Source of the DNA: Eukaryota sp. GEM-RC1
Taxonomy: Eukaryota
Assembly: GCA_040285855.1 (NCBI GenBank)
Contig: JAUFOQ010000003.1
Location: 310,001 to 374,000, forward strand
DNA length: 64,000 nt
Direction of reading: 5' to 3'
Positions 12,446 through 53,705 of this stretch are shown here, piece by piece. Position 1 is the first letter of the stretch. Each line of letters begins with the position of its first letter. Under the pieces are notes generated by a model. That model was not told where the DNA came from, made no database searches, and saw nothing but the letters and a program-made list of their open reading frames with translations. Both the position numbers and the translations under genes were made by a program.

Positions 12446-12906
12446 AACAATTAGACATCACTATGCCGAAAGTCAAGTGGAAGTTCAAATTCGTCCAGGT
12501 AGAGAAATACAAAATACTAACATCAATTGCGATTGTGCGTTTACATCCCATTACATGGCCAACATTTTTAATCATCAAAGTTTTTGTGGCAGATATAATG
12601 AAATAAATGGTCTAAAACTCAATATCATCAAAGCAAGATTCCTTAGAACCGAACCTTGTTGAAGCTTTGTCTTCATAATGCACACTGACGGATAATAGAG
12701 CTTTCGAAATCATTGTGGGAACTGCTTTTAGAATTGTAAAGACAATTCTGTTCTGCCAAAAGAGCGGTCAAAAATATAATCAACTTTTTTAGTTGACAAT
12801 ATTTTGCTGAAGGTCCAATCTTTGGATCTAAAGATTAATAATACCGTCCAAATCCAAATTTACAGTGTCTATCAGGTAGTTACAAGATGATGTCATCGAA
12901 AATCAA

Positions 12907-21772: not shown

Positions 21773-24700
21773 CTAAGATCCAGACTGATCGATCAAAACG
21801 TCCACATTTTCTTCACTCTCATCTTCTGTAACGACGTCCTTTTCCTCACTCTCCTCAGTCTCAAGACATTGTACACAACTAATCTCAGAAGTCATTTGTT
21901 CAGATTGGCTTCTGCTGAGAATAGTTGGCCTGGGTAGCCCAGCTAACTTTGCCTTCATGATTTCCATAATGTTGATTCCTGAATTGAAATCCCTGTCCCA
22001 CATAGTAGTACAATACTTACACTTGAGCAAACCCCACGGTTTCACTTCAGCACGTTTCTCAAATTCCTCTTCAGCTTTTCTCCACTCTTCTTGGAAATCC
22101 ATACTGTTTTTCTTACAGTACCACTTCAGCCACTTCTTTTCCGTTTCTTCTTTCGATGGATGTTCGGATCTGGACATCTGATTCCATGATTGTGGGTATT
22201 TTCACCAAATATTCCGTCCTTAGCACACTTAGAGCAACACTTACTAGTTCGGTACTCATCCACTAGAAAAATCTTGAACCCTGCTTTTCTAAATAGCTTC
22301 CTCATTGCTTTTCCTTTAATTGTCGGAATAAAACCTTTCGAGCGAAAAGCAGAGTCGTTCCAATCACCATAACCGATGAGAACTTTATTTGGTTCACCAA
22401 ATTTTTTCTTGAAACGGTTGATCATTTGGTCTTCTCCCCGTTTCTTGTTGGAGTACAACTGAAGTTGTCTCTTTCTAAACCAAGTTGAACTGTATAAATT
22501 CCAAGTTCTCAAGTTGAATAATTCTTTTTGATAGATGTACTCACAAAACTCTTCACGAACACAAGATTGTTTTTGTCCTTGATTGACAGCAGCAGAGAAG
22601 AGATTCATTGCATCTTTACCAGTTACATCAAGACCGGTTGTCGATTCGAGCTTTAGTTGTTCTGTTTTACGGTATTTTTTGAATTTGGAGTCGTAGTTAC
22701 GTTCTCCTTGAGTATAAACAAACTTTTTAAACTTGTCTTTTTCTCTCAGCTTAACATCTTTAGAGACTTGAACTTCAGGTTTGGGTGTTCTGTGGTTTCT
22801 TCTGTTTTTAATGACACGTCCTGATGGCTTTCGTGGTCTTGTGGTTGCATCTTTTTAATTCCTTCTTTTCCAATTCCTCAGCAGACTTTTCTGTGACAGC
22901 AACAATTGGGGCATACTTATTTGGATCAATGCCCACAAGAGTTCTTTCTCTGAGATTTAATTCCTCAATATCGGCATCGGTTAAATCATCCAGATACTTT
23001 TCTTCAGTATACAATTGAATTGTAGAATATTTTTTCCTACTAAATCGTTTCTTTGTAAAACAAGTGAAACTGAAACACCATCAGTTTGGAGTGAGTTTTT
23101 GAAGGAGTAATTTGCCTTAGTAGATTTGGAAGCATCTAGCATCTCTGTTAAGTAGGGAATCCCAAATTTCTGTTCCATATTGGACAGAACGACTTGTGTA
23201 AAATTTCTTTGTTTGTTTTTTTGAAAATTTTCTCTCCAGAAATCTTGGATTCTAAATCTTGAACTTCAGCCATGGCTTCTTTTTTGAAAAAATTACCTAA
23301 AAAAACTTTAGTGTCAACTCTAAAATGCTGTGGAATGACAGTGTCTGTTAAAGGTAGACAATTTGGAATACTGCAAGGATTACCTCTTTCATCAGTTTCA
23401 GCTCTAACAAGTTTTGTTATAAACATTGCATGAGACAACAATTTCATTGGATGGACCTTTTGAGAATAGAATAAGTTTTTATCTTTGACAAATATTGAAG
23501 TAAAATGACTTTCCAGATAGTTTTTAAAATTTCTACAAATATTTCTTTCAGGATTTTCAAATAAGTCAAAATTGATTTCAGAAATTTTACAATCAATAAT
23601 TTCTCTCTCAATTGTTTAAACTGGGACAACAATTCTTGTTTTTCAATCACATGGTCTTTTAACTCTGTTATTCTCGATTTTTTATTCAAACAAATGTTCA
23701 TGGCACGGAAAATGTATTCATGAAAGTGCATTTTCAAATGAGTAGCATAATTTGCACGTACATGTCTTGAATGGTATTTCAAAATTTGATCCATTAATGT
23801 GTAGGAAGGAGCTAGGAAATCGTAATCATCCTCAAAAACTTGAGGTTGTAAATATGTCCATGATGCGACATTTTGTTCGGAGATCATTTCGAGAATTGGC
23901 AAGTAATAGTCCAAACATAGGTGAGCCATCCTACATCTCATTGAGACTAGATCACTAGACACAGTACCTCTTTTCGATGTTCTTTCTACAAGTTCCACAG
24001 TTTCCGAATCTTCCATTTCGATCTCTTCTTCTTCCTGTTCAATTTTGATGTACAATACTTGCATCTTTTCATCACAACCTTGTTTTTCATAGTAGTGTTC
24101 CAATTCACTTCTTTTTGACAAACAGACCACCATAAAGACTCCAGAACCTTGTTTTTTTCTTGAAGAATGTCCAAGTTGGGTAATTCGTGAGGTTTTTCAT
24201 TTATTTGACGATCATATTCATCAATAAAGAATAACTTTAAGAGCATTCTACCTCTGGTATTGATTCTACTAAAATTCTTTCCAATTCTGCGAAATTTATT
24301 AAGATCAGATTGTTGATCATGGGGATTGGGATCTTTGAGAATTTGACGAAGATCACATTTAACAGATTTAACAGCAGGAAGAAACAACATTGTTTGCAAT
24401 TTTTTATCTAAGAAGAAGTCTACTAAGTGACGACATAATTCAACATCGTTAATACAATAACAAGCAAGAGACCTACGGTCTTCATCTGAACAATTCCACA
24501 AACGTTCAATTTCTTTCAACTTGGCTAAAGTAGTTCGATTTCTTAGCACTTCATAACCTTGACTCTTGTACTTAGTTGTAAGACGAACTTTCTCATCTTC
24601 AGATAAAAGATCCAATTTTTGAACTCGTGAACCTTCAAACAGATATGAAACAACATTTCCAATGATCTACCTCCGGGAAATGTATAAGTAGAACGTAAGA

Positions 24701-25468
24701 GTTGATACAAATCGAGAGACCAAAAAGAAGCAAGATTTGACTTCTTAGCCCATCTTTGAAAAAACCACGGACAACAAACAGAACCTTCACCCAGTTTAAT
24801 TAAGAAATTGATTTCCACATCAAGCAGTTGACATCGACGAATAATAAATGGCAAATCAAATGAATTTAAATTGTAACCACAAATGAGTTTTGGCTTTTCC
24901 CATTTCAGGAGATGAATAAATTCAACCAACATTTCCTTTTCATTTTCAAAATGAACAACTTCAGCATTGAGATCATCAGTAAGAACTGGCTTAGAAGTAA
25001 ACAAGAAACTCCTTGACTCTTGTAAAGGATGTTCAAAAGTATTTACAAGTTGGATTCCAATCTGGATGATTGAATCATTTTCAAAGTCAGGTTTCAACTG
25101 ATCTGGTTCTTCAGACAATTCAGAGATTGGTTTGGCTTCTGAATCGAGATCATCGTCTGCAGCATCTTTTTTCTCCGAAGTTTTAGGGAGTTTTACAGTA
25201 TGCAATTCTTTTGCCGAAAGAGATTCAATGTCCAGAAAAGATATAACTCCTCAGCTTCTAGAAACTGCAAAGGAGATTCGGACGGTACAGTTTTCTTCTT
25301 ATGAGCAGGTTCTGTACCAAGACTTGAAAGACTCAATCTTGTACCCAGGGGATCAGAATTGGGATTAGATTGTGGACCTGGATTGGATTCCACATCACCA
25401 TCAGACGTAAGATCAATTTTGAACTGCAGTCTACAAGCAAAACTGACAGAAATTTGCAAAAACGACAC
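21773..25468 (-). pseudogene. 2A peptide - PolB-type DEDDy exonuclease - Fanzor1 fusion (multiple frameshifts in this assembly)
   Basis: In order: GDVESNPGP; FLDIES (ExoI); GYNLNSFD (ExoII); YCIND (ExoIII); VKCDLRQIL; QTDGVSVS; VGIDPN (RuvC-I); IGYGDW; VDEYRTSKCCSKC; LLKCKYC..WDRDFNSGINI (RuvC-III). Confidence 0.88.
25373..25411 (-). other. 2A-like ribosomal skipping (StopGo) motif LTSDGDVESNPGP
   Basis: Exact match to the D(V/I)ExNPGP consensus with the usual upstream LxxxG. Confidence 0.85.
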
Positions 25469-26444
25469 TTCAACAAAATTTCACCACCACCACTTTCAAA
25501 ACCACCAGAACCACCACCGATCCACTGAATTTTACAAGGAGGCAAGTTTGGGGGCTGGAAAGCAGTGTGTTGCCCTGGTGGTTCTATCACCATGCTGGGC
25601 ATGTAAAAATGATAGGCCTGACTGCCAAAAACAACACACATACTCCCATAAAAAACCCTCGACTTCGAAAAACTAAAAAATTTGGATTGAATTGGATCAA
25701 TGACCAAAAATGCCTTCCTTGGGGTTTTGCTTGAACAATGATGCCTTTGAATAGCATATTGCCGCCCGGTCCCACCCAGGCTGTATGGATACGAGATATC
25801 TAAAGAAGTTGCTTCTGTAGAATTCCACCTGATTTGATAGGACGACTTTCCCACCAAAAAGAGGCCTCTCATAACCGTCGAATCAATGAACATCGACATG
25901 TGAGCAGAAAATGGACCATTTTTTATGTTGTTGGTATTTGTAGATGTGTCTACAGTGTCATGTCAGTCAAGACATTTATTGACAATTGTCTTCATTTTTC
26001 ACTTTTCAGTGTCCTCTACATGTACAATTGACCATGAATTTGCTCCTTTCAGTTGTTCTTTAAACAATTCACATCTTTCACTTCACATTTGGAGCCCAAC
26101 ATTTCTTCTCTTCACACACTTTCCTTCTGAAGATGATGTATCAAGATTCGTATTGGTTTTCTGGACACACTTTACACAAGATCACGCTACAAATGTCCCA
26201 CTTCCTTTCTTTTTCTGTTCTTATCCTTTGTTTTGATATAAATAAATGTAGAATTGGACGACACAATTTGGTCTCAATGGCTTCCATGGAGACGTTTTGC
26301 TGGAGGAAGGAGATACCAAGAACATTGAACGAGGCCTCCCAAGTCTCAGTCTTTCATCTTACATCACTCAGTCAACTCTCGTCTTTCCGATGCATCAACA
26401 AACATGTAACATTCCCTTTTCAATATAGATTTATCTTCTCTTAG

Positions 26445-27123
26445 TAGCACTGGGCGTTCAGATATCCGATCCGATCCTATCTGAATTTCTTGTATCTGAA
26501 TCTGATCCGATCCGAACTACCCTTGATCCGAATCTGATCCGATCCGAACTACTCTAATCTGAATCTGATCCGATCCGAACAACTCTAATCTGAATCCGAT
26601 CTGAAATCCGAACAAGCAGAATCTTCTTAGCCCTTTCTTGACTATATGAGAACACCAATATCATATTCTTTATATCACTTAACATCTGAATCATTGTATC
26701 TTGTTTAATGAATGAAATCTGGCTCTGTTTTCAGTTTATTCTTATAGTCTTAGTCAAAGTGTTGTATTCTTGATTATGATATAGCTTAAGGAATCTGTAT
26801 AAATCAAATCACTTGGCAACTTTCTTCAAAGTTGTACAGTTAAATACTATCCATGTTACATTGAATGTGATTGTACCCAGCAAAATCCGCAGTACAAACG
26901 ACAGAACATGTATTAGGTTAGGATCTTTATACAAATGAACACAGTATAAAGATCATTGTATAATTACAACAGTAACAGTCTACAAAAGTTGTATACACCA
27001 CAATTGGTTTCAGATAACGGATATCTGACTTCGATCTGAATCCGAACAATAGGATCTGAATCCGATCCGAATCCGATCCGATCTGAAATCTGAAATGAAA
27101 TCTGATCTGAACGCCCAGTGCTA
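26445..27123. mobile_element. Non-autonomous hAT transposon (679 bp)
   Basis: Perfect 19-bp TIR tagcactgggcgttcagat / atctgaacgcccagtgcta, exact 8-bp TSD tctcttag, dense subterminal tccga/tctga repeats. Confidence 0.92.
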
Positions 27124-32330: not shown

Positions 32331-33596
32331 TTGAGTAAGCAAAAATTTGAGGTCTTGAGATGGAATTTACACACTTGTAGCCACCCACCGATGTGTTTCC
32401 GGTTTTTCCTTGTCACTGGCCACTGCACGTGTGAAAAAAACCATGTGCTGCTGTAATTTATTCATATTGTTATTTAATCATTTAAATGTATTAGAAGGTG
32501 TATTTAGAAAATTTGCAAGTGTAAACAATAGCAATGTTGGTGTTGAGAACGAACTGTGACGTACTACTATAGTAGTAGTAAACAAGTTTTCTTCAATCGA
32601 TTCTTTTATGATTGACCTCCACCTTAAGTAGGATATCTTTCTCCCCAAAACATCTTCAAACTAGCATCTTCATGGAACTTGACTTATCTGATGATCGAAC
32701 TCTTGTTTTTTCCGGGTATTACGGCTTCTTTCTCCCCGACGTTGATAGAGCTTCTATTGGGGAGTACGAGTTCTATGGTGGTGCCATTCTTAGAAGTTTG
32801 AACTTTAGTCCAGACCAAGCTCCTGAAACTTTGTTGTGTTTCGGAGTTGAATATACAGATGACTTCCCACATGGTTTTCTGCTTGTTATGCCTAGCTTCA
32901 TATCTCATTGTGTAAGAGGTTTGTTTTAACTTGTAACCTGATCATAGTTGGAGAGGTTACTGATCTAGATAGGTTTCTGTGTGCTCCTTCTCGTTCCTCT
33001 GATATTTCGTGTGATCATATTGATGATCTAGCACTACTTACTCCTAGAATGCCAGATGATGTTGAGATCTCCATGTCTTGATTTCTTTACAACAATTTAG
33101 AAAACATTTTTTTTGCAGCAGTTGTACGGTCATTGGTGATGTTTTGCGATGATTTTGACTTATCTACTTGATACATTGGTATGCATGAACCATTAGTAAC
33201 TGATTAATGAATCGGGATAACCCTTAAGTGTATGCTTTTGTAGACACTCTCTATGTATTCTGTAAATTGTATTCAATATACGCTGCTTGATTACCTTTAT
33301 TATATACGATATCTTCTGCCACAAAGGGACAAAGTAGTTAATGTCTCAGTGATCGAATCAAGTATAAACAATGGGAAAGTTGTCAACGACCCCTTAGTAT
33401 GTCTAACTTTAAAGTCAACTAGTAATGTCTTATCAATTATACACCAAGACAATACATCTATTGAAAGTGTCATTTGTTAATGGTTTAAGCTAAGTTCTTC
33501 CAGATAAAACTCAACGTAATGTCAGTAAAGATATGGATAATGAAAGTACATCAAAAATGCCGAGCCAAGAGGCTGATTTACTAACTTTACTACATA

Positions 33597-34533
33597 TCGT
33601 CGAGGTCCCAATACAAGCAACCTTAAATACTATACAAGCATACCCCTTACTATGCTTGTATTGGAACCTGCTTGTATTAGGGTCCCTTAAAACTCACTTG
33701 TGACTGTACAACTATTGATCACGATAAGTGGACTAACATGGAATTTCAAACCACTTTCTGTCATTCAATATCCTAGTCCATCTAGATCGTCTAATTCTAA
33801 ACAAAAGGTGAACAAAAGTATGTCTCCGTTATCAATTTCTTGATCATTCAAGCGTCTTTATAAAACGCATCTGGTATTGTGCTGCCAATTGACATTATTT
33901 CCATCTTTTTTTTGATCTCTTAATACTTCTTCGGCAACAAACTTGTTTCTCAGGAATTCTTATTACTTCTGCAATTATTCACCATAGTCAACTCTGTAAT
34001 CATTCACATGAATCTTGTTAATAAATTGTGTGAAACCATCAAAGAGATTTGATTTCTGAGGATGTCCTCCGCACGATTGGTTTGTAAAGTCATTGTTTCT
34101 TCAAAAACGACTGTATTCGACAAAATACCAGATGTACTAGTGTAACATATTGAGTCAAGAGCAGAAAACAACAAAGAGTAACAAAGTTCGTTCAACAATA
34201 GTTTTATAGACGAACATATATAAAGACGAATGTATAATATTTTGGTCACGTGTTTGTTAATAAATACATGTACAATGTACAACAAGTTATCTGACACGAA
34301 GTGACATATGTAATTGACCCGAACGAATTGTGTAAAACGATACGAGTTGGCTGAAGTACCAGTACCTATACCGGTAGGTGAAATCAATGAAAAATTCCAA
34401 CGGTAGCCCACTGATGTTTTATATCAATGTTCTGAGCTTTTTGAAGAAACATTAAAGTTTATTTTGTGAAATAATACAAGCATACCCTCTACTATGCTTG
34501 TATTGGAACCTGCTTGTATTAGGACCTCGACGA
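33597..34533. mobile_element. Non-autonomous TA-flanked (Tc1/mariner-type) element
   Basis: 23-bp TIR tcgtcgaggtcc(c/t)aatacaagca flanked by TA on both sides. A ~48-bp hairpin-containing block (atacaagcata...tatgcttgtat...) is repeated directly at both ends. Confidence 0.85.
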
Positions 34534-34679
34534 TACAGACTTACACTAAAATGATGTTAAACTATAGCAATAAAAATTCAACAATAAACTTAAATATATT
34601 TTACAATTGTTCAACAAAATTTAGAAACTTCATAATATTCCAGCATGCTAATTTTTTAAAATTGTTCCAATTTAAACCT

Positions 34680-35711
34680 TTACTTGAAGCCTCTCCAATT
34701 GCATTTGAGACACAGGGTATGTTTTGGACCTAAATTTAAATCTAATGATAATGAAATGAGATCAGATCGAGAAATATTGGAATAATTTTTAAATTTGTGG
34801 TCGACAATTTCACAGAATTCCTCAAAATCATAACCCAAACAGGTATCACCAGAATAAACAATTTCATCAATCTGGGACATTCGAAGTAGACAATCGGCTA
34901 TACGTGACTTCACGTCATCAAAAATGATTGATTGATACCCTTCACAATCAAGATGATTGAAATCCAACTGACTAACAGCCACAATCAACTGCTTTCTAGA
35001 AATTGGAACATCCATAGACTCCAGTGCTGACAACAATTCCTCAAAGGTACATGGAGCAGGAAGGGAAAGGGAAGACAGAGACTGATGGAGAAGAGAAGTA
35101 GACGGAGGAGGTGGAAGGGCATTGAAGTGATAAGCCTTAGCTAAGGAAGAAAAGAGGGTGGACGCTATGGTAGTAGCATCGGTGGTATTGGCAAAAAGAG
35201 CTTGGAGGAAAGTTTGTTCACGAGTAGAGAAACCAAATGTAGACGAACGGAAGAAGCTTTGAAGAGAACAGAAGTCTAAAGGAGCAGGGAGGTGTTGGAG
35301 GAGATAAGCATCAAGTTCATCTTCAGTGTAGCCATGAAGGGACTTAGGGAGGGTAGAATATTGGGGAGGACAGTTCAGAACGGATTGAAGTTCTTGTGCA
35401 AGGAAATTCAGGTTGACTGTGTGAGTTTGATCATTGTCTACAAACAGATGACTGAAGAAATGATATCGTTGGTAGTCTGGTAGTGAGAGGGAGTTTATAG
35501 TGCTAACCACAGAAAAGATTGTTTCGTTAGCATCAGGAGATCGTACGAGTTCAATGAGTTCAATGGGGGTGTAGTCACAAGCTGGATTTAGTCCCTTCTT
35601 TTTTAAGAAGTATTCAGCTCCAAAGTCAAATATGTTATCAGGTTGTGAGCGAAGTACTTCACGAGTGAAAGCCCGTAGTACCCGAGGAAACTCAGAAGGA
35701 ATTGAAGTCAT
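34680..35711 (-). CDS. RIIa dimerization/docking-domain protein (Sp17/ropporin/radial-spoke-like)
   Basis: N-terminal IPSEFPRVLRAFTREVLRSQPDNIFDFGAEYF is the RIIa D/D signature. Confidence 0.8.
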   Translation of the reverse strand: MTSIPSEFPRVLRAFTREVLRSQPDNIFDFGAEYFLKKKGLNPACDYTPIELIELVRSPDANETIFSVVSTINSLSLPDYQRYHFFSHLFVDNDQTHTVNLNFLAQELQSVLNCPPQYSTLPKSLHGYTEDELDAYLLQHLPAPLDFCSLQSFFRSSTFGFSTREQTFLQALFANTTDATTIASTLFSSLAKAYHFNALPPPPSTSLLHQSLSSLSLPAPCTFEELLSALESMDVPISRKQLIVAVSQLDFNHLDCEGYQSIIFDDVKSRIADCLLRMSQIDEIVYSGDTCLGYDFEEFCEIVDHKFKNYSNISRSDLISLSLDLNLGPKHTLCLKCNWRGFK

Positions 35712-35799
35712 GTATAGTGAATTGGTAATTCTGCTAGTGTGAATCTGCAGATTCAATAATGCTACAGATTCACTGTAAAAAAAATGGCTATGACTATGA

Positions 35800-38737
35800 C
35801 TATGACAATGACAATGACAAATAACTGGGGCTAACTCCTAGACCCCGCTCCAAATGATGCTCCACAATGGTCTTGATGTTGATACATGCGAACTTGTTAC
35901 GATTCCAAACCTTGGCGCTACCATGACATTCTTCCCTACATTCTTGGGACTTGCATCTCAACAAAGCGTGACACTTTACCAGAGGTTTCTTCTCTCTTTT
36001 CCATGGTTTTGGATTACTGATTTCTTTGAACACTTTAACTGGCTTCCAACAAGTAGGACACTTTGAAGACGTGTAACTTTCGTCTACAAGAAGTATGTTA
36101 TAACCATTTCTCTTAAAGAAGTTTCTCCAACCCACACCTCTACTTGATCGGAGGTGTTTTAGGTTCTGCCTCTTATTACCATTGTCACCAAACATCAATA
36201 TACAGTCATTTTTTTCCATCCTTTTCAGTCATTTTTTTCAACAATTTACTTTCTGTTTTTTGAATATGGACGTATCTTTGCATTTTTTGAATGCGCCATA
36301 TCATCAAACAATAGTAATCAATTGTTGATCCAATAACTGTAAGTTTGGAACCCACATAGTCATAGAACGTGTCATAAAGATTTCGAATTTTCTTTGGATA
36401 GTGTTGACTCTTCTTGTTCAACTGTCTTTCCATCTTGGAGAATGAATTCTTTTTTCTTTCCCCTTCTAAACTTTTGATGAACCCTTGACCATCTGGACCA
36501 TTCTGTCTCTGTCAATCTTAGCCACTCATATTGATTGTCTCTTCTTTCTCGGGCTTTTTGTTCAGGAAATGGCCTATTTACTTTCTCTGAACAAAAATAG
36601 AGTAAATCTGTTTTTCCAGGATCAATAAACACTTTTGTTTTCAATGAAAACTCTTCAATATCATAGTCTTGAACATATTCTTCTTTACTGGAGAACTTTG
36701 CACTGTCTGGTTTTAAGGACATTCCAACACAGTCCTCTCTGGTAAGTTCAACACAAGCAGAGAAACCATCAGTTTTAATGGTATTGTTAAACTTATAGCC
36801 TTTCTTTTGAAATGGACGATTAAAATGGAAAAAGTGAGACCAGAATTGATTTTTGTTCAGCAGGAGACATTTTTAAATTTCAGTTTGTGTATTCCAATTA
36901 GACATTTTCTTCTTGACATTCACTTGTTGTGTTGACAAAGTGGAACGTCATATTCCCCAAAAGACCTTGTGTATCTATTTCAAAGAAACCTGGTGTGACG
37001 TGACGAACAATCGGAATTACATTGTAAGCACTTGCTCCTTCCCTTTCATGATATTTATTTATTTGAATAGCAGATTTAATAAAGGGTTGAGGATGTTCAC
37101 GAATTGATTTTAGTAGATATTTAACGACTTTCTTTTTATAAACACCATTAGCATTTTGAATATCAATTGATGGTGGGAATAGAACATCAATAAAATATCT
37201 ATCTCTAAACAATCCTTCAACATAGTCGTTAGTTGCCCACAAAAGTTTAATTTTACCTGCAATGTTCAAACTTCTATTGTTGTCGTCTTGAAGAATTTCT
37301 GTATTACATCTTTGAATGAATTGTTTTGCTTCTGCAGGGGTTTTTGGAATGTCATTTCTGTTACCTTCAAGAAAGAAATTTTTAACTTGTCTAAGTCTCC
37401 AACGGAAAACAGACTGTTCTTTTTTTGACATTTTTTCTCCTTGATCTGTCTTTTGAAAATAAACATTAATAAATTTGTCAATGTATTGAGGATATCGCAT
37501 TTTAATGTTTGTGTCCAAATTCGATTTAATAGTTTCACCAACCATTTTCATAAGTCGTGAGGAATGAGCAGCTGGAAAGAGTGGGATTCCTCCATTGTTG
37601 AGCATAACTTGTTTGTATTCTTCTAAAACAAAGTTTTTCAAGTGTTCATTAAATGCAGTAGCTGGTCGTTGATTACATTATTTAATCTCATGATGTTCAG
37701 CAGAGATGTATCTTAACAGAGTTTGAATATGTTCGACTTCCTTCCTTGTAATTAAAGGTAATTTTGCACCATTCTTATCCATGTGTAATGAAAACAGCTT
37801 CAAACAAAAGGAAGTGCACATTCTAAGTTTGTGAACCAATTGAGCATAATGATCGAGTAATAACGTTAATCGAAAATGTTTGACAATAGACTTTAGTGTA
37901 GTTTTATGTGTAACAAAAGTTGGACGAACGATTATTTGGTTGAAACAATAAAAACAACTTCAATGCTATTACACTATCTTTGGAAGCAATAGTTTAGAAC
38001 TTCTTGAGGTCTTTCAACAACACAATCAATAGGCAATAAGTGGTGAAATTCGTCATAAAAACGTCCTTTAGATTCGTTTAATAAAAACCAACTTAATGAT
38101 CTTAATGACTTTGAATATTTTGAAACAATAAATTGCTTAGCATAAACGTATGAATCACAGAAAATTCTACCAGCCCATTCAGAACAAACATTGTGTCATA
38201 GAGGTGATAAATGAGATTTAGTTTTTCATCTAGCATTGGTTCTGGAAAGTCGACTCCACGTGTAACAATCCTTTTGCCTAAAACAACATTATCGAAGTCA
38301 GTTATGTTAAATCCAGTTAAAACTGAGGGATTTTTATCATTGAAATAGTTTACAAAAAACTATAGTAACTGTTTTTGTTTGTCTTCAAAAAAATCGAAGG
38401 AGGCAGTTCAACATCAGATTCACGAGTCAACTCATAAGTTGCAGCAAAATTGTCATGAAGGTAAAATTGGTCTATTATAAAATGACCAAACACTCCAGAA
38501 ATCATAAAAACTTGTTGTTTTTCAATCCACACTTCTCTTTCTGCAATCACTTTTCATTTTGAGAGATCCATTCTCGTTCTTTCTTTGATCATCCAACTCC
38601 TCTGTAAAGGTCTCTGCAGGGATTTGATCAATTTCTCTAGTTTCAATATCAAAAGACAATATTGAACAATGATTAGTGTTCTTTGGTATTTGGGAATGTT
38701 TGAGAAACTTAACCATTGGTTTTTTAGGAGGTTTCAA
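35800..38737 (-). pseudogene. Second, divergent PolB-type DEDDy exonuclease - Fanzor1 fusion (frameshifted; RuvC-III Asp appears to be Asn)
   Basis: ILSFDIET (ExoI, ~38645); PSVLTGFNITDFD (ExoII, ~38300); NYC/KDSVIALKLF across a 1-nt shift (ExoIII, ~37985); HKTTLKSIV; IKTDGFSA; VFIDPGKTDL; MFGDNG; VDESYTSSKCPTC; HALLRC....C..VWNRNKFACINI. Confidence 0.85.
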
Positions 38738-39045
38738 ATTTTTGTCGCTTTCGCATATGTTACTCTTTTCTGCAATGTACTGTCCAAAAAAAAGTCAATG
38801 ACAGAATCATGAAGCAGTACATTGGGTTTTAGTGTGTCAATTTGATCAGATCTTAGTATAAGATGTCTAGGACGAGATTGTGTTAGAATTCCACGATGTT
38901 GATGTTGTAAAATTTGGGATTTTTGAGAAAATTTTTTTAACTACTGTATAGCATAGCATTGACGATAATGATTGTTCTGAGCTAAACGAGTTTTTTGATG
39001 TGTGTAATAGATTCACCGTTCAACTATGGCGCTTTGGATAAGAAA

Positions 39046-40380
39046 TTAATAATGATCATCGGAAAATGTGATCTTCATAACCAAGGAAAACATGTTTAAA
39101 AAAGACATTCTATTATTGTGTAGTGATTTTAATGACTGTTGTGTTTGACTGTTGATTGGATTGTTATATAGAGAGATCTCAGAAACAGAGGAATTCACCT
39201 TTAAAGCATCAGCAATTGCAATAGCGCCATCATTACCAATTAAGTTGTTATATAGAGAGATCTCAGAAACAGAGCAATTCACCTTTAAAGCATCAGCAAT
39301 TGCAATAGCGCCATCATTAGCAATTAAGTTGTTATATAGAGAGATCTCAGAAACAGAGGAATTCACCTTTAAAGCATCAGCAATTGCAATAGCGCCATCA
39401 TTAGCAATTAAGTTATTACATAGAGAGATCTCAGAAACATTGGAATTCACCTTTAAAGCATCAGCAATTGCAATAGCGCCATCAGAACCAATTGAGTTGT
39501 CATGCAGATAGATCCTAGAAACAGACGAATTCACCTTTAAAGCATCAGCAATTGCAATAGCGCCATCAGAACCAAATGAGTTGTTATCTAGATCGATCTG
39601 AGAAACAGACGAATTCACCTTTAAAGCATCAGCAATTGCAGTAGCGCCAACAGGACCAATTGAGTTGTTACGTAGATCGATCCAAGAAAGAGACGAATTC
39701 ACCTTTAAAGCTTCAGCAATTGCGATAGCGCCTTCATTACCAATTGAGTTGTATCCTAGTCCAATGCTAGAAACAGAAGAATTCACCTTTAAAGCTTTAG
39801 CAATTGCGATTGCGCCTTCATTACCAATTAAGTTGTTATCTAGATCGACCCTAGAAACAGAAGAATTCACCTTTAAAGCTTTAGCAATTGCGATAGCGCC
39901 TTCAGGACCAATTGAGTTGTTATGTACATTGATCTGAGAAACAGAAGAATTCACCCTCAAAGCTTTAGCAATTGCAATAGCGCCTTCATTACCAATTGAA
40001 TTGTAGTCTAGATCGATCCCAGAAACATCATTTCCTATCATCTGATCATAATAATTCTTCAACTCAGAGCTAAGCTTGCTCCAATCAATAACTAGTTTCT
40101 TATCTTCAACTTGTTGTACATGACATACACTTTCAATAGACTTGTTTGGCGAAGCAGTGTCATTAGACTCACACTGGCCAGCAACGAAAGCTTCAACAGC
40201 TTCTTTCATCTTGTAGTTGGAACACAGTCTTGACTTGTCCACTTCTGCTGGACAGATCGGACACCCGTCATGAGAAACAAGCCACTGCTGTAAATGCGAC
40301 ATACAAAAGGTGTGACCACAACAAGTAACTACCGGATTCTTGAGAATTTCATGACAAACATCGCAGAGATATGGAGACAT
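39046..40380 (-). CDS. RING finger + RI/NLRC3-like LRR protein
   Basis: CDVC..ILKNPVVTCCGHTFCMSH..W...CPIC RING, then about 11 near-identical 28-aa repeats (84-bp DNA periodicity). Confidence 0.9.
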   Translation of the reverse strand: MSPYLCDVCHEILKNPVVTCCGHTFCMSHLQQWLVSHDGCPICPAEVDKSRLCSNYKMKEAVEAFVAGQCESNDTASPNKSIESVCHVQQVEDKKLVIDWSKLSSELKNYYDQMIGNDVSGIDLDYNSIGNEGAIAIAKALRVNSSVSQINVHNNSIGPEGAIAIAKALKVNSSVSRVDLDNNLIGNEGAIAIAKALKVNSSVSSIGLGYNSIGNEGAIAIAEALKVNSSLSWIDLRNNSIGPVGATAIADALKVNSSVSQIDLDNNSFGSDGAIAIADALKVNSSVSRIYLHDNSIGSDGAIAIADALKVNSNVSEISLCNNLIANDGAIAIADALKVNSSVSEISLYNNLIANDGAIAIADALKVNCSVSEISLYNNLIGNDGAIAIADALKVNSSVSEISLYNNPINSQTQQSLKSLHNNRMSFLNMFSLVMKITFSDDHY

Positions 40381-44527: not shown

Positions 44528-45708
44528 TTTTTGATTTTTTAATTTCATACTTTTTTGTAATCGTTTTTCTTATTTTTTGTTGTATACATATTCCAAATTG
44601 TGCTGCTCCTACAGTAGTTCCTATCATTTACGTTGAGAACTACAACAAGTCTCAATTCTAAACACCAATGAACAACTTCGATTTTTCTCTCTGTTAAACA
44701 ACGATAGACCGTATTTTATCATCTATTTATGTTGTAGAATGTATTTGTCATTTTGTTCCTTTAACCGAGCAATTATCAGCAAAACCACAATCTTCATCAA
44801 CACGAACAACAACAAAAGAGATACAAGATGGATGGAAAAAAGGAAACCAGGTTGCATCACTGTTGTTAAGTTAATTATCAGTGTTCAGTTTCTAGTCAGC
44901 TGAATGGCACCATGTGGAGTTGAACTCCGTTTATGATCAATAGATGAATATTTTAAATTTGCTGCAAGCAACCACCAACAGTACGAACTATAACACAGTT
45001 TGATAGACATTGAGATTCAGTCCTCTTTCGGGTCTATGGATTTCACCGATAACAGTGAATCTCTTGTCAAAATTTTGTTAGACAACAACGATTTGTCTCT
45101 TTGGTAATCAAAGTCCTAGAAAATACTTCTCAGTACGTTACAGGGAACATCTGAAACCGTATACTCTCATCTAAATGTACAGTTTGTATCAATTTGTTCC
45201 TTTAACCGAACAGTTTTCAACAACGCTACAGTCTTCATCAACACGAACAACAACAGAATGTATGAAAAAAGGAAACCAGGTTGCATCACTGTTGTTATGT
45301 TAATTATTGGTGTTCAGTTTCTAGTCAACTGAATGGCACTATGTGGAGTTGAACTCCGTTGATGAATATTTTAAATTTGCTGCAAGCAACCTCTGTACTA
45401 CCAACAGTACGAACTATAACACAGTTTGATAGACATTGAGATTCAGACCTCTTTCGGATCTATGAATTTTATTGATAACAGTGAATCTCTTGTCAAAATT
45501 TTGTTAGACAATAACGATTTTTCTCTTTGGTAATCAAAGTCCTAGAAAATACTTCTCAGTATGTAACAGGGGACATCTAAATCCGTATACTGTCATCTAA
45601 ATGTACAGTTTGTGTCAATTTGTTCCTTTAACCGAATAGTGATCAACAACACTACAGTCTTCATCAACACGAACAACAACAAAAGAGATACAAGATGGAT
45701 GAAAAAAA

Positions 45709-48393
45709 GATTTGGTTGTGTGTAATTTTTTGGACCTTCTCTTCTAATTGCGCAAGTTTCTGTTGAGTTGGAAAATCTGTAAATTTATAATACCCACTTG
45801 ATCGACTTATCATTGGAGCCAATGTGTTATTGAAAAACTTTATAATTCCAGCAATGACATTATCCAATGCTCCAATTTGGTTGTTTAGATCACCCATTTG
45901 GTTATTGATTTGACCAATATCTTTGCTAAAGATATCTCCATGCACATATCTTCCCAACATTTCCTCAATGGTCCCTAAAAGATCATCTCTAAACAGATTT
46001 AACTCTTCAGCTTGACTATGTCCCCCATATAAGGAAGGAACAAACACATCATCTAAATTGGATTCTCCAAAATCTGTATTCAAAATATCATCAACAATTC
46101 TTGGTCTTCTTCCTCCAATTCTACCCCCAAAGTATCTGAAAGAATCTTGATCATAGAAATTTGATACAGCAAAAGAATCATCGATACCTTGTCGATAGAA
46201 ATTAATCAAGAATCGTTTTAAAGAATTCAAATATCTTCTATATAATTGATATTGCATAAAATGTGGATTGTTAGCTTTTTGAATTATTTCTGCAATTTGA
46301 TGGTCTAACCCATCAATGTGTTGACCCATTGATATACGAACAATCACCTCATACAATACTTTTAAATCTTGATATAAAACATCAACGTGTCTACTATCTA
46401 AATCCTGAAGAGATGCAATTTGATCATATGATTCTTTAGCCACACGAATGTCATTCTTTAATGCTCGTAAAGAAGAATCATCCAAATCACAATCAATTAA
46501 TGTTTTCATCCAATTTGCACAGAATAATTGAGAACAAGTTTTTGTATTTTCCAAAGTTTGTACGACATTTGGATTTTGAAGTAAATCTTCTCCCACATGT
46601 TCACAAATATCATTATAAGTGATGTTGGAATGTTTTAATAATTTTGGATTTTCATCTCCAATGACATTATATTTAATCAGATTTTGTAATCTAATGTTAT
46701 CGTTATTTGTAATTGGAGTACTATTCAGATCCTCATCTTCAACTGATGTAAAAATGGTATTTAATGAATTTGAACAATAAGCAGGTTTTTTTTAATGTTG
46801 TAGTGTAAGATTGTGTTTCTAAATCATAAACAATGGTTTCTTGAGTTTGATCTGGTCCAAGTTTCACTAATGCATCATTTGGATTGAATTTTCCAAAGGT
46901 TAATGCTTTTGCAAGATATTCGCCATCATCAGCTACCTCTGCTGGATCTACAGGAAGACTTTTAGCATTTCCTGGATATATGCGTACAACAAAATGATCC
47001 GGAGAAACATCAGAAGAACCACCTTTTTTGAAGTACGAGTGAATGCTTGGGGGTTTTACATAGAATTCATCAAACACGTTCTTACCAGTATTTGGTCCAT
47101 ACTCCTTATCTAAATGATTGTAATACCAATCCAGATTCGCCTTATTCTGACTATCATTCAAATCCAACCAATTCTGATGTAATGGATTTGCATGCCATCG
47201 TCTAAAGATGTCATTATTAATGGGTCTGACATAAGGACGACCCTCTTCGTAAAGCATATTAGCATACTTGGGAACAAAATATTCATGGTACAATCTGTAA
47301 ATGTCATCTGGAGTTGGTTTACGGTTCGTGGCTTGTTCATAGTCTTGTCTGTATTTTTCTGTTTCATTCCACCACGTAGTTCTATCATTCAAATTCACAA
47401 ATTTTAGCTCGTATCCAATCTTGTCATTTTCAAATACGTGCAGTCTAAGAGTCTCATCTTGCCTAGTTCGAGGTCGAGTTTTTAGAATGGGTCCCACAGT
47501 TGGTATATTTGTAGAGGGTTTAGAAGTGGATTGAGAAGTTGAGTCGTGTTGTTGTTTAGCAGCATCTTCTCGTTGTTTTCGTTTTCGTTGAGCAGCATCA
47601 TGGCTGGAGAGTGTGAGATGGGAAGTGATGTGTTGCATGAAGTTTTTAACAATGTATCTCCATTAATTTTGCATGTTGAGATAATCTAATAGCTTCTAAC
47701 TCTTTCTTTACAGCTGGATCCAAAACAAATCCTGTGTTCTGGAGTCTACGTAAAGTCTCATTACTTACTTGATATAAATCCATCGCGTCTTTATAAACTT
47801 TTTCTAGGTCATTGGTTAATCTCGTGGATAATTGAGTTAACTCCTCTGAATTTCCTACACCTATCGCGGTTTGTTGATATTGGGTAAATAAATCAATCAT
47901 TTCATTATATTTAGCAAGCAGATTGATGTTATTTGAATATGCAGCATTTAAAAAAACTGCTAGAGTTTGTTTTTGATGATTAGATGCGTTAAATTTTTGT
48001 ACTTCTTCTCTTGTCTTTGTTTGTTCCTGTCGTAGTTGTTGCTGCAAGTTCTTTACAGATTCATTTAGTTTAGCCATCTCAAGCTTTGGAAACATTTCGC
48101 GTATTCTTAAGTTGAGCAGCCAACTCCTTATGTTGAGCAACACTTGATTCATATGATGTCCTTAGTCTATGCAGATCTTTTTCCTTTTCAGTATATTGTT
48201 TAATAAGATTCTCATAGTCGATCTTCATTTTGTCAATAGTTTCCTGCAATTGCTGAGAGTTCCTATGCTCATCTCTGAGTTGATCCTGTAATTGTTTTAT
48301 CATATCTTGTACACCTGGAGCACCATCGCTAATATTTTGTTTTAACCGATTAATTTCAGATTGCAATTTTCTGATTTAAGATTTTGAAAAAAA
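45709..48393 (-). repeat. 2.7-kb coding cassette in satellite, copy 1 (5'-truncated coiled-coil gene + 3'-truncated unknown gene)
   Basis: ORFs 48079..48366, 47646..48152, 46739..47638 and 45664..46596; inserted at the monomer A-tract. Confidence 0.85.
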
Positions 48394-51021
48394 GAAACCA
48401 GGTTGCATCACTGTTGTTATGTTAATTATTGGTGTTCAGTTTCTAGTCAGCTGAATGGCACCATGTGGAGTTGAACTCCGTTTATGTTCGATAGATGAAT
48501 ATTTCAAATTTTGCTGCAAGCAACCTCTGTACTACCAACAGTACGAACTATAACACAGTTTGATAGACATTGAGATTCAGTCCTCTTTCGGGTCTATGGA
48601 TTTCACCGATAACAGTGAATCTCTTGTCAAAATTTTGTTAGACAACAACGATTTGTCTCTTTGGTAATCAAAGTCCTAGAAAATACTTCTCAGTACGTTA
48701 CAGGGAACATCTGAAACCGTATACTCTCATCTAAATGTACAGTTTGTATCAATTTGTTCCTTTAACCGAACAGTTTTCAACAACACTACAGTCTTCATCA
48801 ACACGAACAACAACAGAATGTATGAAAAAAGGAAACCAGGTTGCATCACTGTTGTTATGTTAATTATTGGTGTTCAGTTTCTAGTCAACTGAATGGCACT
48901 ATGTGGAGTTGAACTCCGTTGATGAATATTTTAAATTTGCTGCAAGCAACCTCTGTACTACCAACAGTACGAACTATAACACAGTTTGATAGACATTGAG
49001 ATTCAGACCTCTTTCGGATCTATGAATTTCATTGATAACAGTGAATCTCTTGTCAAAATTTTGTTAGACAATAACGATTTTTCTCTTTGGTAATCAAAGT
49101 CCTAGAAAATACTTCTCAGTATGTAACAGGGGACATCTAAATCCGTATACTGTCATCTAAATGTACAGTTTGTGTCAATTTGTTCCTTTAACCGAATAGT
49201 GATCAACAACACTACAGTCTTCATCAACACGAACAACAACAAAAGAGATACAAGATGGATGAAAAAAAGAAACCAGGTTGCATCACTGTTGTTATGTTAA
49301 TTATTGGTGTTCAGTTTCTAGTCAGCTGAATGGCACCATGTGGAGTTGAACTCCGTTTATGTTCGATAGATGAATATTTCAAATTTTGCTGCAAGCAACC
49401 ACCAACAGTACGAACTATAACACAGTTTGATAGACATTGAGATTCAGTCCTCTTTCGGGTCTATGGATTTCACCGATAACAGTGAATCTCTTGTCAAAAT
49501 TTTGTTAGACAACAACGATTTGTCTCTTTGGTAATCAAAGTCCTAGAAAATACTTCTCAGTACGTTACAGGGAACATCTGAAACCGTATACTCTCATCTA
49601 AATGTACAGTCGATATCAATTTGTTCCTTTAACCGAACAGTTTTCAACAACACTACAGTCTTCATCAACACGAACAACAACAAAAGAGATACAAGATGGA
49701 TGAAAAAAGGAAACCAGGTTGCATCACTGTTGTTATGTTAATTATTGGTGTTCAGTTTCTAGTCAGCTGAATGGCACCATGTGGAGTTGAACTCCGTTTA
49801 TGATCGACAGATATTTTAAAATTTTGCTGCAAGCAACCTCTGTACTACTAACAGTACGAACTATAACACAGTTTGATAGACATTGAGCTTCAGACCTCCT
49901 TCGGATCTATGGATGTCACCGATAACAGTGAATCTCTTGTCGTAATTTTGTTAGACAACAAAGATTTTTCTCTTTGGTAATCAAAGTCCTAGAAGATACT
50001 TCTCAGTACGTTAAAGGGAACATCTAAAACCGTACACTCTCATTTAAATGTACAGTTTGTATCAATTTGTTCCTTTAACCGAACAGTTTTCAACAACGCT
50101 ACAGTCTTCATCAACACGAACAACAACAAAAGAGATACAAGATGGATGGAAAAAAGGAAACCAGGTTGCATCACTGTTGTTAAGTTAATTATCAGTGTTC
50201 AGTTTCTAGTCAGCTGAATGGCACCATGTGGAGTTGAACTCCGTTTATGATCAATAGATGAATATTTTAAATTTGCTGCAAGCAACCACCAACAGTACGA
50301 ACTATAACACAGTTTGATAGACATTGAGATTCAGTCCTCTTTCGGGTCTATGGATTTCACCGATAACAGTGAATCTCTTGTCAAAATTTTGTTAGACAAC
50401 AACGATTTGTCTCTTTGGTAATCAAAGTCCTAGAAAATACTTCTCAGTACGTTACAGGGAACATCTGAAACCGTATACTCTCATCTAAATGTACAGTTTG
50501 TATCAATTTGTTCCTTTAACCGAACAGTTTTCAACAACACTACAGTCTTCATCAACACGAACAACAACAGAATGTATGAAAAAAGGAAACCAGGTTGCAT
50601 CACTGTTGTTATGTTAATTATTGGTGTTCAGTTTCTAGTCAACTGAATGGCACTATGTGGAGTTGAACTCCGTTGATGAATATTTTAAATTTGCTGCAAG
50701 CAACCTCTGTACTACCAACAGTACGAACTATAACACAGTTTGATAGACATTGAGATTCAGACCTCTTTCGGATCTATGAATTTCATTGATAACAGTGAAT
50801 CTCTTGTCAAAATTTTGTTAGACAATAACGATTTTTCTCTTTGGTAATCAAAGTCCTAGAAAATACTTCTCAGTATGTAACAGGGGACATCTAAATCCGT
50901 ATACTGTCATCTAAATGTACAGTTTGTGTCAATTTGTTCCTTTAACCGAATAGTGATCAACAACACTACAGTCTTCATCAACACGAACAACAACAAAAGA
51001 GATACAAGATGGATGAAAAAA

Positions 51022-53705
51022 GATTTGGTTGTGTGTAATTTTTTGGACTTTCTCTTCTAATTGCGCAAGTTTCTGTTGAGTTGGAAAATCTGTAAATTTA
51101 TAATACCCACTTGATCGACTTATCATTGGAGCCAATGTGTTATTGAAAAACTTTATAATTCCAGCAATGACATTATCCAATGCTCCAATTTGGTTGTTTA
51201 GATCACCCATTTGGTTATTGATTTGACCAATATCTTTGCTAAAGATATCTCCATGCACATATCTTCCCAATATTTCCTCAATGGTCCCTAAAAGATCATC
51301 TCTAAACAGATTTAACTCTTCAGCTTGACTATGTCCCCCATATAAGGAAGGAACAAACACATCATCTAAATTGGATTCTCCAAAATCTGTATTCAAAATA
51401 TCATCAACAATTCTTGGTCTTCTTCCTCCAATTCTACCCCCAAAGTATCTGAAAGAATCTTGATCATAGAAATTTGATACAGCAAAAGAATCATCGATAC
51501 CTTGTCGATAGAAATTAATCAAGAATCGTTTTAAAGAATTCAAATATCTTCTATATAATTGATATTGCATAAAATGTGGATTGTTAGCTTTTGAATTATT
51601 TCTGCAATTTGATGGTCTAACCCATCAATGTGTTGACCCATTGATATACGAACAATCACCTCATACAATACTTTTAAATCTTGATATAAAACATCAACGT
51701 GTCTACTATCTAAATCCTGAAGAGATGCAATTTGATCATATGATTCTTTAGCCACACGAATGTCATTCTTTAATGCTCGTAAAGAAGAATCATCCAAATC
51801 ACAATCAATTAATGTTTTCATCCAATTTGCACAGAATAATTGAGAACAAGTTTTTGTATTTTCCAAAGTTTGTACGACATTTGGATTTTGAAGTAAATCT
51901 TCTCCCACATGTTCACAAATATCATTATAAGTGATGTTGGAATGTTTTAATAATTTTGGATTTTCATCTCCAATGACATTATATTTAATCAGATTTTGTA
52001 ATCTAATGTGATCGTCATTTGTAATTGGAGTACTATTCAGATCCTCATCTTCAACTGATGTAAAAATGGTATTTAATGAATTTGAACAATAAGCAGGTTT
52101 TTTTTAATGTTGTAGTGTAAGATTGTGTTTCTAAATCATAAACAATGGTTTCTTGAGTTTGATCTGGTCCAAGTTTCACTAATGCATCATTTGGATTGAA
52201 TTTTCCAAAGGTTAATGCTTTTGCAAGATATTCGCCATCATCAGCTACCTCTGCTGGATCTACAGGAAGACTTTTAGCATTTCCTGGATATATGCGTACA
52301 ACAAAATGATCCGGAGAAACATCAGAAGAACCACCTTTTTGAAGTACGAGTGAATGCTTGGGGGTTTTACATAGAATTCATCAAACACGTTCTTACCAGT
52401 ATTTGGTCCATACTCCTTATCTAAATGATTGTAATACCAATCCAGATTCGCCTTATTCTGACTATCATTCAAATCCAACCAATTCTGATGTAATGGATTT
52501 GCATGCCATCGTCTAAAGATGTCATTATTAATGGGTCTGACATAAGGACGACCCTCTTCGTAAAGCATATTAGCATACTTGGGAACAAAATATTCATGGT
52601 ACAATCTGTAAATGTCATCTGGAGTTGGTTTACGGTTCGTGGCTTGTTCATAGTATTGTCTGTATTTTTCTGTTTCATTCCACCACGTAGTTCTATCATT
52701 CAAATTCACAAATTTTAGCTCGTATCCAATCTTGTCATTTTCAAATACGTGCAGTCTAAGAGTCTCATCTTGCCTAGTTCGAGGTCGAGTTTTTAGAATG
52801 GGTCCCACAGTTGGTATATTTGTAGAGGGTTTAGAAGTGGATTGAGAAGTTGAGTCGTGTTGTTGTTTAGCAGCATCTTCTCGTTGTTTTCGTTTTCGTT
52901 GAGCAGCATCATGGCTGGAGAGTGTGAGATGGGAAGTGATGTGTTGCATGAAGTTTTTAACAATGTATCTCCATTAATTTTGCATGTTGAGATAATCTAA
53001 TAGCTTCTAACTCTTTCTTTACAGCTGGATCCAAAACAAATCCTGTGTTCTGGAGTCTACGTAAAGTCTCATTACTTACTTGATATAAATCCATCGCGTC
53101 TTTATAAACTTTTTCTAGGTCATTGGTTAATCTCGTGGATAATTGAGTTAACTCCTCTGAATTTCCTACACCTATCGCGGTTTGTTGATATTGGGTAAAT
53201 AAATCAATCATTTCATTATATTTAGCAAGCAGATTGATGTTATTTGAATATGCAGCATTTAAAAAAAACTGCTAGAGTTTGTTTTTGATGATTAGATGCG
53301 TTAAATTTTTGTACTTCTTCTCTTGTCTTTGTTTGTTCCTGTCGTAGTTGTTGCTGCAAGTTCTTTACAGATTCATTTAGTTTAGCCATCTCAAGCTTTG
53401 GAAACATTTCGCGTATTCTTAAGTTGAGCAGCCAACTCTTTATGTTGAGCAACACTTGATTCATATGATGTCCTTAGTCTATGCAGATCTTTTTCCTTTT
53501 CAGTATATTGTTTAATAAGATTCTCATAGTCGATCTTCATTTTGTCAATAGTTTCCTGCAATTGCTGAGAGTTCCTATGCTCATCTCTGAGTTGATCCTG
53601 TAATTGTTTTATCATATCTTGTACACCTGGAGCACCATCGCTAATATTTTGTTTTAACCGATTAATTTCAGATTGCAATTTTCTGATTTAAGATTTTGAA
53701 AAAAA
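51022..53705 (-). repeat. 2.7-kb coding cassette, copy 2
   Basis: Near-identical to copy 1 with the same junctions; extra homopolymer indels. Confidence 0.85.

Follow-up and report, generated by a model that had tools for sequence, protein, structure and literature searches.

An in-frame fusion of a PolB-type exonuclease to full-length Fanzor1 forms a multi-copy gene family in skoliomonads

We analyzed a window of 64,000 nucleotides of compact eukaryotic DNA from Eukaryota sp. GEM-RC1 (GenBank assembly GCA_040285855.1, contig JAUFOQ010000003.1, positions 310,001 to 374,000 of the forward strand). The window contains two loci, on the minus strand, in which an exonuclease precedes a Fanzor nuclease; we refer to the copy at 35815-38780 as locus 2 and to a second copy as locus 1. 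We consider it close to certain that the architecture behind locus 2 is a PolB-type exonuclease joined in frame to a full-length Fanzor1, encoded by a multi-copy gene of skoliomonads.

The initial annotation had described a series of exonuclease and Fanzor motifs at locus 2, and these were found on the minus strand in the order claimed, from 38656 to 35953, but split over three reading frames. The motif given as "YC..D" could not be read, as a frameshift near 37979 breaks it and no single frame holds it in this copy. The Fanzor motifs from FIDPG to LLRC were correctly recognized, but it had been overlooked that the RuvC-III residue is Asn (WNRN) and not Asp. The features of locus 2 are as follows.

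38660..38780, minus strand: remnant of the basic linker found before the exonuclease in intact relatives (alignment to the relative P0032 begins at 38779)
37940..38665, minus strand: PolB-type (DEDDy) 3'-5' exonuclease domain, broken (motifs; PF03104 E 0.004 on one piece)
38656, minus strand: SFDIET, motif read in the window
near 38650, 38308-38291 and near 37990-37976, minus strand: ExoI D-x-E, ExoII N-x3-D and ExoIII Y-x3-D, the last with a frameshift within (motifs)
38317, minus strand: TGFNITDFD, motif read in the window
37908..37980, minus strand: exonuclease-Fanzor junction, a linker of about 10 residues with two frameshifts; unbroken frame in siblings
35815..37910, minus strand: full-length Fanzor1 module (WED/REC/RuvC/zinc finger) with frameshifts and nonsense codons (relatives' alignments)
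37908, minus strand: HKTTLKSIV, motif read in the window
36773, minus strand: TDGFS, motif read in the window
36615..36629, minus strand: FIDPG, the RuvC-I motif with the catalytic Asp
about 36190, minus strand: FGD, motif read in the window
36087, minus strand: VDESYTS-x-CPTC, motif read in the window
35938..36087, minus strand: shifted RuvC-II Glu (VDESYTS), then a C4 zinc finger (CPTC ... CxxxxC) (motif; PF07282 E 5e-4)
35964, minus strand: LLRC, motif read in the window
35896..35907, minus strand: RuvC-III WNRN, Asn replacing Asp (Asn codon 35896-35898), common to the whole locus-2 clade
35784..35818, strand not assigned: hexamer microsatellite of 5.8 copies, lengthening the last codons of the locus-2 copy

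Pfam alone recognized locus 2 as weak pieces (the PF03104 and PF07282 matches listed above). tblastn with intact relatives gave a colinear tiling of 38779-35815 with E values down to 1e-105, and a frameshift-aware alignment to the sibling protein P0011 contained 588/656 identities (89.6%). Because of this tiling and these identities, the observation lies far beyond chance.

Joining the exonuclease to the Fanzor at locus 2 requires reading through two frameshifts, near 37979 and 37930. In P0011, the ExoIII helix continues into HKTTLKSIV, which locus 2 matches after the two frameshifts, and a single open reading frame (ORF) spans at least 55 residues beyond ExoIII in 35 of the 211 predicted proteins scanned. 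The complete exonuclease, RuvC-II, the zinc finger and RuvC-III lie in one ORF in 11 of the 211, and intact members of 940 amino acids exist (P0019 and P0029). The family is present in three species, GEM-RC1, TZLM3-RCL and TZLM1-RC. The expectation that the junction near 37930-37990 can be restored to a single frame, and with it the proposal of a conserved family, is thus borne out by one unbroken ORF in 35 proteins. Host domains are attached to some gene models of the family (a DEAH helicase in P0016, DM10 in P0043), as might be expected if the fusion were a chance event or a gene-model artefact merging two adjacent genes. The unbroken junction in 35 proteins refutes chance, and an artefact of this kind is made extremely improbable by the identical junction found in three species and also in the window's raw DNA, which leaves no space for an intron. 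In P0016 and P0043, both from TZLM3-RCL, the host domains are joined to 5'-truncated copies with intact 3' ends, which reflect either insertion into a host gene or a chimeric prediction.

GEM-RC1 and TZLM3-RCL are skoliomonad metamonads (PMC11316075). The longest open piece of locus 2 matched three protein clusters from these two organisms, one of which comprised 12 members about 90% identical, the window's own piece included, with well-separated locus tags on at least five contigs. Further clusters in TZLM3-RCL had sizes of 4, 3, 10, 7, 4, 4, 2, 1, 1 and 5 proteins, and those in TZLM1-RC had 1 and 11; these sizes refer to predicted proteins, some being pieces of one locus, and are not a copy count. 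Searching 1.84 billion representatives with a profile returned 1782 matches at E 0.001. Among the 150 matches listed, six carried the exonuclease, all like the locus-2 family and the four that we looked up all skoliomonad, and about 128 were stand-alone Fanzor1 proteins without it. Scans of viral contigs and metagenome contigs found no relative of the family.

Sequence and structure comparisons identify the N-terminal domain as a PolB-type DEDDy 3'-5' exonuclease with Pol delta as its best sequence match. Intact P0019 scored 57.9 bits against PF03104 (cut-off, 23), and its N-terminus matched the Pol delta exonuclease ahead of the Fanzor match. The ExoI D-x-E, ExoII N-x3-D and ExoIII Y-x3-D motifs, together with a PF03104 score above the cut-off, are found in the family; P0030, one of the 11 complete proteins, has an E-to-K change in ExoI. 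A profile built from nine exonuclease-bearing members gave yeast and human Pol delta as best matches (6e-17 to 4e-15), with T4 at 4e-12, herpes simplex virus at 4e-10, archaeal enzymes at 1e-9 and Pol alpha at 2e-6, and in the Atlas the domain has clusters of PF03104 as its neighbours. In a structure model of P0019 (128-sequence alignment; mean predicted local distance difference test score [pLDDT], 83.3; predicted template modeling score, 0.77; exonuclease part weaker), residues 1-246 align to PolB exonucleases at Z 13-14. PolB matches end at residue ~246, and the Fanzor follows directly with no polymerase domain in between. The source of the exonuclease may be host Pol delta or a giant-virus PolB, which the ranking of scores used to judge its origin does not separate, as there are few giant-virus PolBs in the PDB.

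The same kinds of comparison identify the C-terminal part as a full-length Fanzor1, nearer to Fanzor1 than to Fanzor2, TnpB or Cas12. phmmer aligned P0019, onto which the locus-2 window tiles, from the first strand of SpuFz1 to its end (E 5e-24). With the P0019 model, the best seven Foldseek matches were all Fanzor1 structures, TnpB appeared at 1.6e-3, and residues 248-940 align to SpuFz1 at Z 28.5. A Gaeavirus Fanzor of 876 amino acids (BFVD A0A3G4ZYF5) was aligned over 908 columns with a root-mean-square deviation of 23.6 and has an additional N-terminal portion. The RuvC-I DPG motif reads FIDPG in the window, DPGK in 10 of the 11 complete proteins and DLGK in P0200. In the window, VDESYTSSKCPTC carries the shifted RuvC-II Glu about six residues before the zinc finger; the pattern, for which the Fanzor criterion is D-X(125,275)-[TS][TS]-XX-C4, recurs in 11/11 complete proteins. 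The RuvC-III Asn is likewise present in the window and in all 11, while the literal RD motif of Bao and Jurka 2013 is not there, so that every complete member has a D-E-N triad. We considered the Asn as a sign of a dead nuclease and dropped this idea, since GtFz1 has a D-E-N triad and is active, and D606N increases SpuFz1 activity (PMC11423790). Intact members are predicted to cut DNA under RNA guidance.

Across eight aligned rows of 18-49% identity, 13 of 214 gapless columns were invariant, and six of the 13 are the exonuclease motif residues D, E, N, D, Y and D, of which N is the ExoII Asn and the other five are the acidic and tyrosine catalytic residues. Deep subfamilies share 27-34% identity in the exonuclease and 24-32% in the N-terminal half of the Fanzor. 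It is the constancy of the catalytic residues between deep subfamilies that demonstrates selection on the fusion. The initial annotation had argued for long-term selection from the exonuclease residues kept at locus 2 despite its divergence from locus 1; its conclusion stands on the subfamilies, but the argument from the locus-2 copy is weak, since a decayed copy with nonsense codons and about 90% like its siblings says little on selection. As it had also proposed, we compared separate trees of the two halves, and these agree on all supported splits. The family forms one clade, all D-E-N, in a 126-row Fanzor tree (support, 1.00), from which 23 fragments were left out, and in a 36-row mixture-model tree (support, 100), the latter a quick tree. 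Copies inside subfamilies are mostly 91-99% identical; this identity indicates recent amplification of copies over an old diversification (~30% identity between subfamilies).

The locus-2 copy carries 10 frameshifts and three clear stops (38196, 37678 and 36948) between 38660 and 35815, as well as one ambiguous stop near 38360; one further break in the P0011 alignment belongs to P0011 and was left out of this count. The clear stops are substitutions at Trp/Leu codons outside base runs, and we therefore conclude that the copy is most likely decaying and non-functional. Long-read assembly errors offer another explanation for the breaks. Assembly of the named relatives used nanopore reads that were corrected with short reads (PMC11316075). 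When three near-identical repeat units of the window were compared in pairs, each of the 12 internal indels counted fell in a run of at least 4 identical bases, and one A-run that breaks six siblings is read through in the locus-2 copy. Some of the locus-2 breaks may thus be assembly errors. That every break is one, in an otherwise intact gene, we consider quite improbable in view of the three stops, of the frameshifts at 37979, 37930 and 36377 in runs of 3 or fewer bases, and of the slightly greater distance of locus 2 from its siblings (median identity, 91.7%; n = 6) than of siblings from each other (94.2%; n = 35). Detectable homology of locus 2 starts near 38780, and a hidden Markov model (HMM) built from the N-termini of relatives found neither 2A nor Ulp1 upstream of the exonuclease; the copy is therefore probably 5'-truncated or deleted. 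A likeness by eye to an Ulp1 start at 38770-38860 was supported neither by Pfam nor by the relatives' HMM and was rejected. While the copy itself is most likely dead, its interest lies in the family that it reveals.

Locus 1 shares the layout of 2A, exonuclease and Fanzor with the locus-2 family.

21776..25470, minus strand: locus 1, a 2A-exonuclease-Fanzor lineage ~20% identical to locus 2, with a D-E-D triad
25373..25396, minus strand: 2A/StopGo core DVESNPGP upstream of the locus-1 exonuclease (HMM of relatives' N-termini, E 2e-4, best of 2746 pieces)

Three siblings of locus 1, 95-97% identical to it, encode 2A, exonuclease and the first helix of the Fanzor within a single ORF. Identity between locus 1 and the locus-2 family amounts to 18-21% for the exonuclease and 17-25% for the Fanzor. 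Trees placed locus 1, with its long branch, outside the locus-2 clade, and a grouping of the two in one clade was neither rejected nor shown (approximately unbiased test with quick trees, P = 0.49). The proposal that both loci belong to one conserved family agrees with their layout, whereas a single fusion event is not established at ~20% identity. We regard one old fusion behind both loci as the simpler reading of the sequences because the layout is shared, and a second capture is also possible. Two miniature inverted-repeat transposable elements (MITEs), both hAT-like, flank locus 1. The MITE at 26445-27123, just upstream, has terminal inverted repeats of 19 bp that match perfectly and a target duplication of 8 bp; the one at 20751-21744, whose inverted ends are short and imperfect and whose duplication is also 8 bp, was inserted ~30 nt after the locus-1 stop, so that any omega-RNA there would be split. 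Beyond the second MITE lies a weak hairpin (z -2.0).

The longest members of the family read leader, DVEANPGP, Ulp1 (one or two), basic linker, exonuclease and Fanzor. Their Ulp1 modules keep the His and Cys motifs and score up to 73 bits against PF02902. NPGP occurs in 14 of the 211 proteins, all of them family members, and 10 of the 14 have the exact 2A core D(V/I)ExNPGP; locus 1 matches this core and locus 2 has none. Among P0085, P0191, P0192, P0026 and P0203 there are variant cores (His-Lys for Glu-x; one degenerate) and one member in which a C-terminal fragment of Ulp1 lies upstream of the 2A instead of after it. No reverse transcriptase (RT) or APE domain was found by Pfam in the members scanned. 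This organization raises the possibility that the exonuclease is cargo of the polyprotein and works independently of the Fanzor cut, having come together with 2A and Ulp1 from a virus, a polinton-like element or a retroelement polyprotein and perhaps being released by proteolysis. The 2A motif is typical of RNA viruses and APE-type non-long-terminal-repeat (non-LTR) elements (PMC3708506), and LTR polyproteins are known to include DnaQ-like exonucleases as accessory domains (PMC6338049). However, 2A and Ulp1 vary or are lost between subfamilies, whereas the exonuclease is joined to the first Fanzor strand by the same ~10-residue linker in all lineages, and the two halves diverge at an equal rate. 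An origin as independent cargo therefore seems rather unlikely to us.

What the fused exonuclease may do is suggested by the position of the Fanzor cut. Fanzor1 enzymes (SpuFz1, GtFz1) cleave 14 to 21 nt beyond the target-adjacent motif (TAM), and at an empty site a non-matching 3' tail of ~16 nt would therefore have to go during repair. For SpuFz1, the cuts fall after base 16-17 on the non-target strand and 20-21 on the target strand (PMC10432273). In the mechanism that we propose, the 2A motif would free the Ulp1-Exo-Fanzor protein from its short leader, Ulp1 might act on SUMO at target chromatin, and the intact protein would cut DNA at the empty site under RNA guidance. From the geometry of the cut, the TAM-side 3' end of the empty site would bear the ~16-nt tail unpaired at the donor's left junction, the fused PolB exonuclease would remove this tail, and host recombination would copy the element into the empty site (homing). 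The element would then be mobilized in trans or by homing alone. There are precedents for several of these steps: Pol delta proofreading resects up to 40 nt from the invading 3' end in yeast (PMC10868807), with pol3-01 having no effect in the annealing assay of that paper itself; in T4, both 43Exo and DexA have an effect on the homing of introns (PMC2988022, PMC12153337); and TnpB-type nucleases are regarded as homing endonucleases, with a restorative model of homing described (PMC13565253). Because of the cut geometry, these Pol delta and 43Exo/DexA precedents and the homing view of TnpB, we tentatively favor trimming of 3' ends at the Fanzor cut as the role of the tethered exonuclease, though with somewhat less than even confidence. 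We would place target erosion next, followed by independent cargo and then by guide trimming.

Target erosion would mean that the exonuclease chews the cut ends beyond clean rejoining and so destroys the target, be it empty alleles, rival elements or viral DNA. Its 3'-5' polarity suits the making of deletions, TREX2-SpCas9 raises editing and deletion size (PMC13370227), and the many subfamilies would offer many possible guides. Fanzor1 guides, however, derive from the flank of each copy (PMC13565253), which points to empty sites and not to invaders, and erasure of targets does not account for the amplification of copies at 91-99% identity; we view such a role as unlikely. The DEDDy fold includes RNases, and the exonuclease might instead trim the 3' end of a precursor omega-RNA to set guide length. 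Fanzor guides are indeed 14- to 15-nt 3' extensions that require processing (PMC13565253), but the best matches of the exonuclease are all proofreading domains of DNA polymerases, and other Fanzors mature their guides without an exonuclease, which leaves guide trimming the least probable of the four.

Several points weigh against end trimming for homing. Unlike in Fanzor-carrying DNA transposons (Mariner, hAT, MuDR, Helitron, Crypton, IS607), no transposase lies between the genes flanking locus 2, where there is no room for one, and no convincing terminal inverted repeats (TIRs) or target-site duplications (TSDs) were found there, only 7- to 8-mer matches between the ends of one decayed, probably 5'-truncated copy (10 shared 7-mers against 5.4 expected). 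Nothing therefore documents an excision that restorative homing would reverse. The early suggestion of a multi-copy, mobile family holds as regards multiple copies, as seen in the protein clusters of three species, while mobility was inferred from that number and finds no transposase, TIR or TSD to accompany it. No omega-RNA was identified at locus 2, and the hairpin after its stop had no Rfam match. Most of the listed Fanzor1 matches lack the exonuclease, and if ordinary Fanzors home, they do so without one, so that it is not needed in general. Trimming in the 3'-5' direction also opposes the 3' overhangs needed for strand invasion. Within the P0019 model, the exonuclease part is weaker, its 10-residue blocks having pLDDT values of 46-88. 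Engineered TREX2-Cas9, moreover, produces larger deletions (PMC13370227).

The hairpin at locus 2 is as follows.

35739..35773, minus strand: stem-loop of 35 nt, located 30-60 nt past the stop; candidate component of an omega-RNA or of the right end (folding z)

Its z value was -3.4 in a chosen 81-nt window (1/200 shuffles) and -1.1 in a 150-nt window. We considered and rejected a Helitron 3' end (a hairpin followed by CTAG): with a spacing of 1 nt and a next base other than T, the arrangement here differs from the Helitron 3' pattern.

Locus 2 lies between a RIIa-domain gene (34680-35711) and a RING plus leucine-rich-repeat gene (39046-40380). The latter, directly upstream of locus 2 and with an N-terminal RING/U-box, and 10706-12457 are NLRC3-like leucine-rich-repeat genes with 84-bp repeats. 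An inverted-repeat element at 33595-34535 has 36-nt arms (83%), is apparently TA-flanked and Tc1/mariner-like, and contains a 139-amino-acid ORF without a Pfam match. From 44800 to 64000, about 24 units of 426-451 bp are interleaved with three near-identical 2.7-kb blocks, which code for proteins without convincing Pfam matches and may be mobile or a satellite-embedded gene block.

A natural family of exonuclease-Fanzor1 fusions is apparently undescribed. The word "exonuclease" does not occur in the main texts of Bao and Jurka 2013, Saito 2023, Jiang 2023, Yoon 2023, Xu 2024 or a 2026 review, and exonuclease, NPGP, Ulp1 and peptidase are absent from 12 of the 14 supplements of Bao and Jurka. 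Literature on Fanzor or TnpB with a fused exonuclease, Ulp1, 2A or PolB yielded engineered fusions or unrelated work only, the supplementary tables of the 2023 Fanzor surveys being outside the scope of this search. We found no literature on Fanzor in metamonads; the skoliomonad genome paper dates from 2024, and the main text of a 2A survey, whose supplementary tables were likewise outside the scope, does not name the skoliomonad organisms. The present analysis adds the D-E-N triad of the family, as in active GtFz1, and the longer relatives as polyproteins with 2A and Ulp1 proteases. Taken as a whole, the family might be a self-sufficient, transposase-free, RNA-guided gene drive, in which a 2A-processed polyprotein supplies Ulp1 to clear SUMO, a D-E-N Fanzor1 to cut and a Pol-delta-like exonuclease to edit the end, and host recombination copies the element; possible as this is, we remain doubtful of the complete scheme. 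If the fusion acts as proposed, it would be the first RNA-guided nuclease in nature to carry its own exonuclease for end processing, and directly usable as a compact editor with altered repair outcomes. It would bear on the fate of DNA ends after a TnpB or Fanzor cut and on how Fanzors benefit their elements. Since the fusion is kept across three species and many subfamilies, end processing is testable by one point mutation, and as exonuclease-Cas fusions have already been engineered to alter editing, the natural fusion is a ready tool candidate.

Among known systems, the family is closest to the Fanzor1 nucleases SpuFz1 (8GKH, 9CEU-9CEZ), PpFz1 (9CF0-3) and GtFz1 (9CER), which its C-terminal ~690 amino acids match end to end (Z 22-28.5). 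It shares with them the DPG RuvC-I, the shifted RuvC-II Glu and the C4 zinc finger, and with GtFz1 the D-E-N triad. It differs from the solved Fanzor1 proteins in adding an N-terminal PolB exonuclease with full catalytic motifs and, in longer members, 2A and Ulp1, so that its proteins reach 940-1900 amino acids, compared with 600-850 for known Fanzor1. Spu-1 carries 30-nt inverted repeats (PMC10432273), whereas no TIRs were found for this family. The proofreading exonuclease of family-B DNA polymerases, among which Pol delta is best by sequence, shares the ExoI/II/III motifs, PF03104 and the fold (Z 13-14), but unlike these polymerases the family lacks a polymerase domain and has an insertion after ExoI. 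The APE-type non-LTR retrotransposons Ingi, L1Tc, CR1, L2 and Rex1 have in common with it an N-terminal D(V/I)ExNPGP after a short hydrophobic leader (PMC4981915, PMC3708506), yet members of the family have no RT or APE by Pfam. TREX2-SpCas9 (PMC13370227) and the T5-exo-Cas12f editor exoCasMINI likewise tether an exonuclease to an RNA-guided cutter; these are man-made, while selection acts on the fusion described here, which is old and of natural origin. The T4 I-TevI system, with 43Exo and DexA, resembles the proposed mechanism in cutting away from the insertion point and in the effect of a PolB proofreading activity on homing (PMC2988022, PMC12153337), but its exonuclease is a separate host or phage protein and its targeting is protein based.

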